From a virus (taxonomy: Duplodnaviria > Heunggongvirae > Uroviricota > Caudoviricetes), in IMG/VR virus record IMGVR_UViG_3300000289_000108: 6,866 nt of DNA. One strand, 5' to 3'. The notes below the pieces were generated by a model. The model worked only from the letters and a program-made list of their open reading frames with translations, made no database searches and was not told the origin of the DNA. This document shows, in pieces, positions 2,786-6,866 of this stretch. How positions within the stretch are numbered: position 1 is the stretch's first letter; each line of letters opens with the position of its first letter. The translations under genes were made by a program, and so were the position numbers.

Positions 2786-2977
2786 ATGTCAGAAGATAAA
2801 AAAGTTGTTAATTTGTTGAGTGACCTTAGTGCTGCTCTGGATAACATTAACCCTCCTAGGGTAAAAACGACGGGTGATAAAGACGCATTAAACGCAGAGA
2901 TTCATATATTACTGGCGTTAGTAACTGACAAAATTCAGCGTAAATACCCACCTGTCACACAACTGGTTGATTTTTAA
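2786..2977 (+). CDS. hypothetical small protein, 63 aa, low GC (about 37%); the only + strand gene inside the - strand operon region
   Basis: ATG 2786 directly after gap 2698-2777; followed by a GC-rich hairpin; convergent with the low-GC - strand gene starting at 3479. Confidence 0.45.
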   Translation: MSEDKKVVNLLSDLSAALDNINPPRVKTTGDKDALNAEIHILLALVTDKIQRKYPPVTQLVDF

Positions 2978-2985
2978 TTTGATTT

Positions 2986-3006
2986 ATGCCGGGCTGCTCC
3001 CGGCAT
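2986..3006. terminator. 8-bp GC-rich stem-loop (ATGCCGGG-ctgct-CCCGGCAT) between convergent genes; possible bidirectional terminator
   Basis: Perfect inverted repeat read directly; lies 9 nt after the stop of the 63-aa gene and 24 nt below the stop at 3030-3032; the flanking U-run is weak. Confidence 0.35.
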
Positions 3007-3270
3007 CTTCTAGCTGCCATAATGTCTCGTCACCTGATAGAGCAAAACGAAATGNNNNNNNNNNNNNNNNNNNNNNNNNNNNNNNNNNNNNNNNNNNNNN
3101 NNNNNNNNNNNNNNNNNNNNNNNNNNNNNNNNNNNNNNNNNNNNNNNNNNNNNNNNNNNNNNNNNNNNNNNNNNNNNNNNNNNNNNNNNNNNNNNNNNNN
3201 NNNNNNNNNNNNNNNNNNNNNNNNNNNNNNNNNNNNNNNNNNNNNNNNNNNNNNNNNNNNNNNNNNNNNN

Positions 3271-3588: not shown

Positions 3589-4123
3589 AGTTTTGAGCTT
3601 CTGCCTGTATAAACTCGCTTACCGTTAATGGTCTGGCAGTCTTCTTTATTAGCTGGAGAGAACTTCCTTTTCTGGCGGTCATACGTCCAGTAACTTTTCC
3701 AGTTGTGCCATTCTGGGGGCTCGTGCTCTGGTAGCTCATCAGCCAACTTGTCCCACTCTTTGGCGTTAAACCACCATACTCCGTCTGAGTTTTCATCTTC
3801 CGGGTTTGTGCGCGTCTNNNNNNNNNNNNNNNNNNNNNNNNNNNNNNNNNNNNNNNNNNNNNNNNNNNNNNNNNNNNNNNNNNNNNNNNNNNNNNNNNNN
3901 NNNNNNNNGAATGGCTACGCGCAGTGCAGATTTTGTTAGCCCAATATATGCCGCGCCTTTTTCCAGAGAGCAAAGCCCGGCGATCGGACCATCCAGCCGT
4001 AAAGTCGCTCCTTTTTTGTAGGAACGCTTTTTCTTGTTTTCTTCGTGTTCGTCGTCGTTGGCGGCATCAATGGATCCGCTGAGTGTGTCACTTTCCTGAA
4101 GTGGTTGGTGGTCAGATAACTCT
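3589..4123 (-). CDS. AlpA/Cox-like excisionase-family winged-HTH protein, seen as two fragments (3909-4123 and 3589-3817) split by gap 3818-3908; both ends lie in gaps
   Basis: HTH-like GAAYIGLTKSALRVAI, then across the gap a Trp-rich wing-like motif DGVWWFNAKEWDKL as in AlpA/TorI/Cox-type excisionases; first gene divergent from the repressor, as cox is in P2. Frame across the gap cannot be verified. Confidence 0.45.
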
Positions 4124-4260: not shown

Positions 4261-4300
4261 TGGTTTGTTTTGGTTTGTTTTCTTCACCATGTGGTGAAGA
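4261..4300. promoter_or_regulatory. candidate operator region of the lysis/lysogeny switch: tandem decamer TGGTTTGTTT x2 (4261-4280) followed by an inverted repeat TCTTCACCA-tg-TGGTGAAGA (4281-4300)
   Basis: Both repeats are perfect and lie 23-62 bp upstream of the repressor ATG. P2-type repressors are recalled to bind direct repeats, but which protein binds which element here is not determinable. Confidence 0.3.
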
Positions 4301-4322: not shown

Positions 4323-4664
4323 ATGGTGAACATGTCAAGAGATTACGCCAAAAAACTAAAGGCGATCAGAAATGCAGAAAAACTTACACAATCTCAGTTT
4401 TCGCAAGTAACGGGGGTTTCTGTAGGGACTATAGGGAATTATGAGTCTGGATATAAACCTGCGCGAATTGAGGTTGTAGAAAAAGTAATCCAAGTCGAGC
4501 GATTCGAAAAATACACTATGTGGATACTTCACGACAAAACATTTCCCGCTGCCGGGCAGGTTGCCCCGGCTCTCTCTCTTGATGGCTCTATTCAGTCGGA
4601 GGGCGATCAGGTTTCAATCGGTATTACCCAAAAATCACCCCGATCAGGCCGCAATGTTGGCTGA
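4323..4664 (+). CDS. phage P2 C-type immunity repressor, 113 aa
   Basis: AAGAGGA Shine-Dalgarno 10 nt upstream of ATG 4323; HTH region KLTQSQFSQVTGVSVGTIGNYESG and motif FEKYTMWILHDK...GQVAPALS match recollected P2 C (YESG, FTKYTLWF, GQIAPALA); immediately upstream of and co-oriented with int. Confidence 0.8.
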   Translation: MVNMSRDYAKKLKAIRNAEKLTQSQFSQVTGVSVGTIGNYESGYKPARIEVVEKVIQVERFEKYTMWILHDKTFPAAGQVAPALSLDGSIQSEGDQVSIGITQKSPRSGRNVG

Positions 4665-4733: not shown

Positions 4734-5801
4734 ATGTCGATTAAGCAACTCAAAGACGGACGTTATCAGGTCGATGTCAGACCGCAGGGGGCGGAAGGAA
4801 AGCGGATTCGAAAAATCTTTGCCCTGAAATCAAAGGCTCAGGAGTTTGAGAAGTATGTGTTACAGAACTTTCATGACAAGCCATGGCAGGCTAAGCCAGC
4901 TGATCAGCGGCGATTATCAGAGCTGCTTGATGCGTGGTGGATGCTTGATGGGCGTAATCAGGCTTACGGGGATAGCTACAGGGTTAGGCTAGGGAAGGTT
5001 GTTCGTGAAATGGGAGATCCTCGCGCCAGTCAGATGACGCGAAAATTTATGCTTGAATATCGGTCAGAGAAATTACAGGCCGGATTAATGCCGTCCAGTA
5101 TTAATCGTGACTTATGCGTACTGTCTACCATGTTCACGGTGCTGATTGAAGCTGAGGTCTTTCACAACGCGAACCCTGTACGCGGTATACGAAAACTGAA
5201 AGTTCAGAACACAGAGATGGCCTTTCTTTCTGATGATGAGATTGAACGGCTTCTTGAGCGACTGGAGGGTGATGCGCGTCGTGTTGCCATTCTGTGTCTT
5301 TCTACTGGTGCCCGATGGAGTGAAGCATCGGAACTACGTGGAGAGCATATCGTTGGCAACCGGGTGACGTTCTTTAACACCAAAAACGGAAAATCCCGTT
5401 CGGTTCCTGTGGCGGATTCGGTCGTGCCTCTGATTAAAACCCGTCGAACGGGGTTATTGTATCAGGTTGATTATCTGAAGTTCCGGGAGATTCTTCAGGA
5501 GGTGAAACCNNNNNNNNNNNNNNNNNNNNNNNNNNNNNNNNNNNNNNNNNNNNNNNNNNNNNNNNNNNNNNNNNNNNNNNNNNNNNNNNNNNNNNNNNNN
5601 NNNNNNACGCATGTCATGCGTCATACATTTGCCACACACTTTATGATGAATGGCGGAAATATTGTTACGTTGCAACGAATCCTGGGGCACGCAACGATTC
5701 AGCAAACAATGACGTACGCTCATTTTTCGCCGGACTTCTTACAGGACGCGATCAACTTTAATCCGCTGGCTGAAAGTGTCCATAAACTGTCCATCGATTA
5801 G
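4734..5801 (+). CDS. int: P2-family tyrosine integrase, about 355 aa with an internal gap at 5510-5606
   Basis: GGAGGGG Shine-Dalgarno 6 nt upstream of ATG 4734 (the track's 4719 start is a TTG extension); MSIKQLKDGRYQVDVRP, PSSINRDL, AILCLSTGARW, HVMRHTFATHFMMNGG, TLQRILGH and QTMTYAHF match recollected P2 Int, including the catalytic R, HxxR, H and Y motifs. Confidence 0.9.
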   Translation: MSIKQLKDGRYQVDVRPQGAEGKRIRKIFALKSKAQEFEKYVLQNFHDKPWQAKPADQRRLSELLDAWWMLDGRNQAYGDSYRVRLGKVVREMGDPRASQMTRKFMLEYRSEKLQAGLMPSSINRDLCVLSTMFTVLIEAEVFHNANPVRGIRKLKVQNTEMAFLSDDEIERLLERLEGDARRVAILCLSTGARWSEASELRGEHIVGNRVTFFNTKNGKSRSVPVADSVVPLIKTRRTGLLYQVDYLKFREILQEVKXXXXXXXXXXXXXXXXXXXXXXXXXXXXXXXXXTHVMRHTFATHFMMNGGNIVTLQRILGHATIQQTMTYAHFSPDFLQDAINFNPLAESVHKLSID

Positions 5802-5822
5802 TTATAATTTGTGTTAATTTGT

Positions 5823-5873
5823 TCCCCCTGTTTTGGCTTATTCGTTGAAAAATAAGTAAATCATCAGGGGGAG
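5823..5873. repeat. nested inverted repeats (TCCCCCTG...CAGGGGGA enclosing CTTATT...AATAAG) just downstream of int; candidate attachment-site/core region
   Basis: Arms read directly from sequence; the enclosed GAAAAATAAG resembles the start of the P2 attP core as recalled (AAAAAATAAG...); position is as expected for a P2-type att site. Confidence 0.3.
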
Positions 5874-5884
5874 CAAGAAACGTT

Positions 5885-5908
5885 AAAGCGCCTGCGGGCG
5901 CTTTTTTT
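5885..5908 (+). terminator. rho-independent terminator (GCGCC-tgcg-GGCGC followed by a 7-T run)
   Basis: Perfect 5-bp GC stem extended by A-U pairs plus a U-tract, downstream of int or at the upstream host gene's 3' end. Confidence 0.7.
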
Positions 5909-5916
5909 GTCTCCCT

Positions 5917-5930
5917 TTGATACCGAACAA
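5917..5930 (+). promoter_or_regulatory. candidate FNR box of the dmsA promoter (TTGAT-accg-AACAA)
   Basis: 9 of 10 matches to the FNR consensus TTGATnnnnATCAA, about 240 bp upstream of the dmsA ATG; dmsABC is a known FNR-activated anaerobic operon. Confidence 0.45.
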
Positions 5931-6169
5931 TAATTACTCCTCACTTACACGTAATACTACTTTCGAGTGAAAATCTACCTATCTCTTTGATTTTCAAATT
6001 ATTCGATGTATACAAGCCTATATAGCGAGCTGCTATANNNNNNNNNNNNNNNNNNNNNNNNNNNNNNNNNNNNNNNNNNNNNNNNNNNNNNNNNNNNNNN
6101 NNNNNNNNNNNNNNNNNNNNNNNNNNNNTGTTACTGGAATCAATCGTGAGCAAGCTTGAGTGAGCCATT

Positions 6170-6866
6170 ATGAAAACGAAAATCCCTGATGCGGTATTGG
6201 CTGCTGAGGTGAGTCGCCGTGGTTTGGTAAAAACGACAGCNNNNNNNNNNNNNNNNNNNNNNNNNNNNNNNNNNNNNNNNNNNNNNNNNNNNNNNNNNNN
6301 NNNNNNNNNNNNNNNNNNNNNNNNNNNNNNNNNNNNNNNNNNNNNNCATTAACATTACCTTTTAGTCGGATTGCGCACGCTGTCGATAGCGCCATTCCAA
6401 CAAAATCAGACGAAAAGGTTATCTGGAGCGCCTGTACAGTTAACTGTGGTAGTCGCTGCCCGCTACGTATGCACGTCGTGGACGGTGAAATCAAATATGT
6501 CGAAACGGACAATACCGGCGATGACAATTACGACGGCCTGCACCAGGTTCGCGCCTGNNNNNNNNNNNNNNNNNNNNNNNNNNNNNNNNNNNNNNNNNNN
6601 NNNNNNNNNNNNNNNNNNNNNNNNNNNNNNNNNNNNNNNNNNNNNNNNNNNNNNNNNGTCTACAATCCGGACCGCCTGAAATATCCGATGAAACGAGTCG
6701 GGGCGCGCGGTGAAGGCAAATTCGAGCGCATTAGCTGGGAAGAAGCCTACGACATCATCGCGACCAATATGCAGCGCCTGATCAAAGAGTACGGCAACGA
6801 GTCTATCTATCTGAACTATGGCACCGGTACGCTGGGCGGCACCATGACCCGCTCGTGGCCGCCGGG
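6170..6866 (+). CDS. dmsA: anaerobic DMSO reductase catalytic subunit DmsA, 5' partial (continues beyond the window); twin-arginine signal peptide; two internal N-gaps
   Basis: [24 protein letters not shown] (Tat motif SRRGLVK); [68 protein letters not shown]; [61 protein letters not shown] all match E. coli DmsA as recalled, including the Cys-cluster motif. Confidence 0.95.

Follow-up and report, generated by a model that had tools for sequence, protein, structure and literature searches.

A P2-like prophage of Escherichia coli integrated at the serS terminator hairpin: attachment core, strand-exchange segment, and a conserved hairpin beside int

Some temperate elements target dyad-symmetric host sequences, such as the anticodon and T-loop stems of tRNA genes and factor-independent terminators, a principle that has been reviewed by A. 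Campbell. In phage P2, the genes of the recombination module are arranged as a leftward cox followed by a rightward C-int and attP. Its arm-type repeats occupy two places, one at the 3′ end of int and one on the opposite arm. The int side and the core are 78 bp apart, and the P arm carries an A/T-rich IHF region and a terminator. The P2 core, AAAAAATAAGCCCGTGTAAGGGAGATT, is 27 bp long and recombines at locI, and the record of the phage (NC_001895) annotates a Cox-binding region (24399-24472) in the interval that separates the core from the P′ arm. The cox-boxes of P2 attP are spaced 10 to 11 bp apart and occur in both orientations (PMC3936717). The consensus of P2-type arm sites is given as tgTGGaCa in the text of a survey of P2-like prophages (Nilsson, Cardoso-Palacios, and Haggard-Ljungquist 2011, Bacteriophage 1:207, PMC3448106), which also assigns PhiECO5, a prophage of UTI89 with ends at 911187 and 948481, to a new immunity class IX.

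The stretch of DNA analyzed here (the window; 6,866 nucleotides) comprises one prophage end, the right-hand one, and the adjoining host DNA, in the order cox (minus strand), C, int, the dmsA upstream region, and dmsA (Table 1). The interval from 5802 to 5915 is, with high confidence, the attR of a PhiECO5-type P2-like prophage. A junction query of 401 nt, comprising the 3′ end of int and the dmsA flank, matched E. coli JNE082640 at 100%; the 398-nt junction sequence of that genome is identical to the window, and the annotated neighbors of the junction in that genome are a complete P2-family prophage and dmsABC. The Int (WP_000023738.1), Cox (WP_001204238.1), and C (WP_000247830.1) proteins carry the same accessions in JNE082640 and UTI89. 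The end coordinates printed for PhiECO5 in the text of Nilsson et al. correspond to base 10 of the 20-bp core, 911187 at attL and 948481 at attR. Both published coordinates thus fall within the core, and neither the prophage nor the location of its ends is new to the literature. PhiECO5 is identical to the window prophage in its Int, Cox, and C proteins, its location between serS and dmsA, and its 20-bp core, but its 83-bp spacer differs from that of the window at about 10 positions, one compensatory hairpin change among them.

Table 1. Features at and around the prophage-host junction (window positions)
Feature	Position	Strand	Basis or remark
C-type immunity repressor gene (HTH)	4323..4664	+	Pfam HTH_3; product identical to UTI89 WP_000247830.1
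int, P2-type tyrosine integrase gene	4734..5801	+	Pfam and alignment with P2 Int
Predicted P′ arm-type Int sites, direct repeats AAAGTGTCCAT and AAACTGTCCAT	5773..5794	+	repeat family D1
P′ arm spacer, phage DNA from int stop to core, 83 bp	5802..5884	+	not in empty sites
Candidate Cox boxes, AATTTGT twice	5806..5822 (5806-5812, 5816-5822)	+	one helical turn apart
Nested inverted repeat/hairpin	5818..5877	+	outer 5818-5830/5865-5877, inner 5836-5842/5851-5857
Invariant block TTGAAAAATAAGnAAATCA, containing GAAAAATAAG	5845..5863	+	all 10 attR variants and metagenome variants
Rfam RF02084 STnc130 match, putative enterobacterial sRNA upstream of dmsA	5876..6010	-	136.4 bits
att core AAAGCGCCTGCGGGCGCTTT, perfect 8-4-8 palindrome	5885..5904	.	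comparison of empty site, attL, and attR
Predicted strand-exchange segment CCTGCGGGCG	5891..5900	.	sole sequence common to both junctions of variants
Start of host DNA, rest of the serS terminator T tract	5905..5911	+	identical to empty site
Start of dmsA, host gene	6170..6866	+	annotation of identical genomes

The breakpoint was located by comparing the window with the empty site and with the opposite prophage end. Among the complete E. coli genomes, 5425/5426 matched the junction query; those without the prophage match from 5885 rightwards only, and identity with the empty site runs from that position onwards. In total, the empty site was found in 5075/5426 genomes, the window-type attR in 344, the matching attL in 347, and the phage arm in 343 to 354. 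In the empty site of C41(DE3), the TAA stop codon of serS is followed by 22 nt, AAAGCGCCTGCGGGCGCTTT, and then TTTTGTCTCCC, so that the core is flanked as ...tctaa-core-ttttgtctccc. The attL of JNE082640 reads ...TCTAA-AAAGCGCCTGCGGGCGCTTT-AAGTAGAGG... (tctaa-core-aagtagagg), and attL and attR of UTI89 are the same as in JNE082640. AAAGCGCCTGCGGGCGCTTT is therefore identical at attL, attR, and the empty attB. A first-pass annotation of the window, made from its letters alone, had named an empty-site alignment and a direct repeat at the other prophage end as the means of finding the core. The alignment puts the breakpoint at 5885, and the direct repeat is the copy of AAAGCGCCTGCGGGCGCTTT at attL.

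The core consists of AAAGCGCC, the loop TGCG, and GGCGCTTT (inverted repeat I3). It is the stem-loop of the serS terminator, duplicated at the other end of the prophage, and this third inverted repeat, at 5885-5904, was absent from the first-pass annotation. That annotation was borne out in proposing that a P2-like element uses an intergenic att site following the int stop codon (TAG at 5799-5801), given that the junction lies between serS and dmsA. It had also seen neither a tRNA gene nor a duplicated 3′ end of a protein gene, in agreement with a negative tRNA scan and with an intact serS that ends 22 nt before the core. No tRNA or tmRNA is present in the window, and the location of the core between serS and dmsA is unlike the sites of 186/Fels-2-type integrases. 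The dmsA upstream region (5905-6169) is unaltered by the insertion, both serS and dmsA are intact after integration, and in every attR copy found at the serS-dmsA site int adjoins dmsA. As in other elements with dyad-symmetric targets, the core is a hairpin-forming perfect palindrome that offers two inverted Int half-sites. The present site differs from those targets in that a protein gene, serS, shares its terminator with a putative sRNA on the opposite strand, and in that the hairpin is regenerated upon integration, whereas the T tract is not.

A different location of the core had been suggested by the first-pass annotation, within or beside the nested repeats to the left of the junction and marked by GAAAAATAAG (5847-5856) as the start of a P2-like core. 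The nested repeats themselves are present as described, with TCCCCCTG at 5823-5830 and CAGGGGGA at 5865-5872 enclosing CTTATT (5837-5842) and AATAAG (5851-5856). The resemblance to P2 is also real to the extent that GAAAAATAAG and the beginning of AAAAAATAAGCCCGTGTAAGGGAGATT (NC_001895) have a run of 9 bases in common, and GAAAAATAAG is invariant among the variants. However, the 27-bp P2 core is absent from the junction, and the 9-base match, at 5848-5856, lies outside it. The match is weak: when the 83-nt spacer was shuffled with its dinucleotides preserved, 84 of 2000 sequences (4%) matched the P2 core over an equal length on either strand. Its orientation relative to int is opposite to that in P2. 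GAAAAATAAG resembles the far end of the P2 core (int sense), lies on the side of the junction where no core is expected, and is irrelevant to the crossover. The whole of 5802-5884 is missing from the 5075 empty sites and has no repeat at the other prophage end, where the only shared sequence is the core. Both the nested repeats and GAAAAATAAG are phage DNA, located 28 to 67 bp to the left of the core. The comparison with the empty site and attL thus rules out this placement, to which we attach practically no probability. The true resemblance to the P2 core is found in sister phages, whose core reads AAATCTCC-TGCG-GGCGCTTTTTTT and whose left half-site, AAATCTCC, is the int-proximal end of the P2 core, AAATCTCCCTTACACGGGCTTATTTTTT (int sense).

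Natural variants of the junction were used to delimit the strand-exchange region within the core. Across ten aligned attR variants, the left half of the core varies and is phage-derived, reading AAAGCGCC, AAACCTCC (N51), or AAATCTCC (LH50-c, LR-31, and the S19-651 type). The junctions of SCU-106 and JNEC-KY177 read AAAGCG-CCTGCGGGCG-GTTTTTgcatgag at attL and AAATCT-CCTGCGGGCG-CTTTTTTTG at attR, and a query constructed from this attL matched at 100% in both of these and in six other genomes. At the attL of LR-31, host AAAGCGCCTGCGGGCGCTTTT is followed by GCATGG, and both LR-31 and N51 are consistent with CCTGCGGGCG as the shared segment. Since only CCTGCGGGCG is common to attL and attR of the sister phages, we infer from these alignments that the 10 bp surrounding the loop must contain the two strand exchanges. 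Under this model, the two arms of the palindrome would be inverted core-type Int sites and both exchanges would take place around the loop, within CCTGCGGGCG. Because the core arms form a perfect palindrome, only the loop TGCG can set the orientation.

The same phage type was also encountered at other positions and in degraded form. In S19-651, it occupies a secondary site upstream of nadA, at the terminator hairpin AAAGCGCCCTAAAGGCGCTTTTTT, which follows the lysT tRNA operon and an RtT repeat. This junction (extracted regions 3100-3160 and 14480-14440) was found in 1/5426 genomes and contains a heterologous overlap in which one C is unaccounted for. A different Int specificity was considered for S19-651 and rejected, because an identical Int is located at the serS site in SCU-106 and other genomes and the nadA junction is confined to that single genome. 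In the metagenome contig ERZ773208 NODE-10362, the same phage arm is joined at AAATCTCCTGCGGG-TGCCTTTGTCTTTATATATTCC to host DNA other than that of the serS-dmsA and nadA sites. At the serS-dmsA site, LR-31 and B-1109 carry degraded prophage copies. The former is a 13-kb remnant that has kept both att junctions (extracted region 32900-45700). In the latter (extracted region 3800-4080), int, the att site, and approximately 75 bp of the dmsA upstream region have been lost, and tail genes abut dmsA.

The genes next to the junction constitute a P2-type recombination module. The int product matches the Pfam families Int_N (PF24624, 97 bits) and Phage_integrase (PF00589, 68 bits) and is 52% identical to P2 Int, with R194, K217, H268, R271, H294, and Y303 invariant. 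Its length is 330 aa in identical relatives. Masked runs of N alter lengths in the window: 97 N at 5510-5606 stand in place of 22 nt, the int frame appears 25 codons too long, and distances measured across such runs are not real. The C repressor gene is the first gene of the C-int operon, which reads towards the att site, and the product of the Cox-family gene (PF10743, 31.2 bits against a cut-off of 27.5) has 173 aa.

Direct repeats resembling P2-type arm sites are present on both sides of the core. On the P′ side, they have an 11-bp period and lie inside the 3′ end of int, in its last codons, with copies of TGTCCAT at 5777-5783 and 5788-5794. They are invariant in 10/10 attR variants. Their reverse complement, ATGGACA, fits the consensus tgTGGaCa quoted above from the text of the P2 survey, and the P2 equivalent, GTGTCCACAcaGTGTCCACA, lies in the same place and is annotated "Int, P′ arm." By analogy with P2, the TGTCCAT repeats are likely to be arm-type Int sites. 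The P arm at attL carries the repeats GTGTCCATataacGTCCAT, so that at least two direct arm-type repeats are found on each side of the core.

The attP of the phage was reconstructed from 5765-5904 of the window and the attL arm, and its junction would read ...GAAACGTT-AAAGCGCCTGCGGGCGCTTT-AAGTAGAGG... The reconstruction is collinear with the annotated attP of P2 (NC_001895). Past the core, the P arm consists of an A/T-rich stretch, the two arm repeats, and a bidirectional terminator next to ogr/hok. The A/T-rich stretch aligns with the IHF-protected stretch of P2; when compared by eye, TTTCAAATGATTA differs from WATCAANNNNTTR by one mismatch and is a candidate IHF site on the P arm. Which proteins would bind where in attP is predicted here by homology with P2. 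A Hok/Gef toxin gene is located at the ogr end, just inside attL (extracted regions 17667-17807 and 2959-3099), and the S19-651 relative has two Hok/Gef copies.

The element thus shares with P2 the gene order, the placement of arm-type repeats at the end of int and on the opposite arm, the approximately 80-bp spacer to the core (78 bp in P2 and 83 bp here), and, on the P arm, a terminator and an A/T-rich stretch that is IHF-like in the present element. It differs from P2 in its core, a 20-bp palindrome at the serS terminator as opposed to 27 bp at locI, in the length of Cox (173 aa here and 91 aa in P2), and in its spacer, the sequence of which is unrelated. A search of a phage collection for a free phage genome with an intact attP returned none. 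The only near-identical records were ON470599, ON470623, and PV468777, which are deposited as phage genomes, yet int adjoins dmsA in all three; they are prophage predictions that overshoot attR by several kilobases and wrongly include dmsA. The next-closest integrases in the collection are at most 56% identical. Among species-representative genomes, an Int with 100% identity was found at the same site in E. albertii, and the other relatives are at most 59% identical. Given this distance, spacers of relatives other than E. albertii could not be aligned to examine covariation, and these relatives were used for a folding survey only.

Rather than being the core, the nested inverted repeat is a conserved part of the P′ spacer. 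This spacer corresponds in position to the P2 spacer of 78 bp, which bears the Cox footprint. At the DNA level, a repeat search identified the outer repeat as 12-nt arms at 5819-5830 and 5865-5876 that are 92% complementary and extend beyond those given in the first-pass annotation. Folded as RNA, 5818-5877 forms a 13-bp outer and a 7-bp inner stem with a free energy of -25.6 kcal/mol (z = -5.5), and none of 200 dinucleotide shuffles folded as well, which places the inverted repeat far beyond chance. The notion that it is a functionless accident of A/T-rich phage DNA can draw on nothing but the small number of variants, and the hairpin has been kept across variants that differ at 10 to 20% of spacer positions; we regard it as highly improbable.

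The pattern of variation in the hairpin bears on whether it acts as RNA. Across the 10 variants, the outer helix is 95% paired. Two double changes were observed, from C-G to A-U in UTI89 and strain 1190 and from C-G to U-A in N51, LH50-c, S19-651, and LR-31, on a basis of approximately 8 haplotypes. Three more pairs have changed in ways that are G-U-compatible on the int-sense strand. The inner helix is 89% paired and shows 0 compensatory changes. Some common variants have a mismatch in the outer stem, namely JJ1886/ST131, which is the commonest, FDN-11, and LH50-c. A metagenome scan for the invariant arm repeat yielded 15 contigs, mostly of the same haplotypes, with no further compensatory changes. 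At the same position, the P2 spacer contains a 15-bp hairpin of unrelated sequence that includes G-U pairs (z = -2.9). In the folding survey, the 90 nt following int at 80 P2-type int loci had a mean z of -1.23, compared to -0.55 for a control segment, and 33% versus 6% fell below a z of -2.

These observations can be read in terms of a role mainly in RNA, in which the C-int transcript would carry the hairpin in its 3′ untranslated region, immediately ahead of the terminator hairpin, and the hairpin would influence the stability of int mRNA or serve as a target of RNase III or Int. The strong folding of 5818-5877, the well-paired outer stem with its two compensatory and three G-U-compatible changes, the P2 hairpin of different sequence in the same place, and the better folding of the region after P2-type int genes are all consistent with it. 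Yu and colleagues reportedly described, in 1994, post-transcriptional control of P2 int, which would be a further point in its favor. On the other hand, the independent changes are few, the commonest (ST131) variant has mismatches, no Rfam family matches the hairpin, and ordinary terminators could explain the signal of the folding survey. A role confined mainly to RNA is a serious candidate, though we rate its chances as somewhat short of even.

Other features of the spacer may be protein binding sites on DNA. The block TTGAAAAATAAGnAAATCA is unchanged even where the opposing 5′ strand of the inner stem differs between variants, and it resembles TTTGAAAATAAATGG of the P arm, which aligns with the IHF-protected stretch of P2. 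We suspect that it is a protein site. Matches to the IHF consensus within the block require two mismatches, and an IHF site there is a possibility. In the two AATTTGT boxes, A..TTG is conserved and the bases between the boxes are variable. In the cox-C switch region (4262-4281), GGTTTGTTTT occurs twice with a 10-bp period and is similar to the AATTTGT pair. The two pairs may be boxes for the 173-aa Cox.

It is conceivable that the arms of the inverted repeat and the invariant block are Cox and/or IHF sites, the RNA fold being a by-product. Binding there would bend the P′ arm and let Int bridge the arm sites and the core. Consistent with such a purely DNA-level role, the repeat corresponds in position and length to the Cox footprint of P2, the element encodes a Cox-family protein, TTGAAAAATAAGnAAATCA is maintained whether or not its bases can pair, and the AATTTGT boxes recur with a 10-bp period. 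The cox-boxes of P2 attP face two ways at intervals of 10 to 11 bp (PMC3936717). Other points speak against it. In UTI89, which has an identical Cox, both arms have changed at mirror positions (C-G to A-T), as would be expected if pairing were maintained but not if a fixed sequence were recognized. Several single changes are G-U-compatible on the int-sense strand only, and the 173-aa Cox has no known cox-box consensus. Overall, we consider this explanation possible but doubtful. Because the compensatory stem change in UTI89 occurred with an identical Cox, the pairing itself appears to be under selection.

Judged from the sequence features on both levels, the nested hairpin probably has two roles of about the same weight, one in DNA and one in RNA. 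In the former, the nested repeat would be part of a platform for excision and architectural proteins, Cox and possibly IHF; in the latter, it would fold within the C-int transcript, in the 3′ untranslated region of int. The sib element of lambda is similar in being a structured RNA downstream of int and near the att site. Unlike sib, which lies beyond the crossover and is parted from int by integration, the present hairpin is located on the int side of the core and is not parted from int by integration. Only the terminator tail differs between attP and attR.

Integration also alters the sequences that follow the terminator hairpin. The copy at attR, which is now located behind int, retains all 7 T of the tract. 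At attL, the hairpin behind serS retains only 3 to 5 T: it is followed by TTT-AAG in the window type and by TTTT-GCA in the LR-31 type, and in the S19 type the stem contains a mismatch. Reading on from serS, another terminator-like hairpin follows approximately 90 bp into the phage arm; in JNE082640 (extracted region 17991-17962), it has a 12-bp stem and the tail GTTTTTGG. A simple terminator scan was unable to rank the attB, attL, and attR hairpins, as the stem absorbs the T tract and the empty site is left uncalled. Judging by the shortened T tract, the serS terminator may be weakened at attL, with altered termination as a consequence.

On the other strand, the core is part of an Rfam match to STnc130. 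The match covers the full model (positions 1-135) with a score well above the gathering score of 55, and the empty site scores 140.1 bits. The 3′ terminator hairpin of STnc130 is the att core on the minus strand, and in the lysogen its 3′ tail changes from UUUUUAGAUU to UUUAACGUUU, which is phage sequence. In the literature, STnc130 is described only as a "putative sRNA," with approximately 2 reads in EHEC RNA-seq; the biological weight of the tail change is therefore uncertain. A more far-reaching proposal combines these changes with the spacer hairpin. In this proposal, the hairpin would control the integrase message at the RNA level, as a structure shared with P2 without shared sequence, and lysogeny would measurably rewire three 3′ ends. 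If this were true, int would gain the full serS terminator, the serS T tract would be truncated, and STnc130 would lose its U tail. We consider the combined proposal unlikely.

The element is of an ordinary, known kind with a standard P2-type module, a common and already catalogued P2-like E. coli prophage whose site is the serS terminator hairpin between serS and dmsA. A literature search found no paper naming serS/dmsA in connection with a PhiECO5-type prophage. Relative to the text of Nilsson et al., the present analysis adds that the core is the serS terminator and STnc130 hairpin. In addition, the exchange window has been reduced to 10 bp and the conservation of the hairpin has been demonstrated. 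Approximately 6% of complete E. coli genomes are lysogenic at this site, including ST131 (JJ1886), UTI89, and APEC strains, and the exact core is useful for the correct delimitation of these prophages and for the design of excision assays. The current understanding of P2-like site-specific recombination is unchanged by these results. The natural variants provide a free genetic map of the exchange region, to a resolution of 10 bp, and reveal a P2-type integrase that uses a terminator palindrome as its target.
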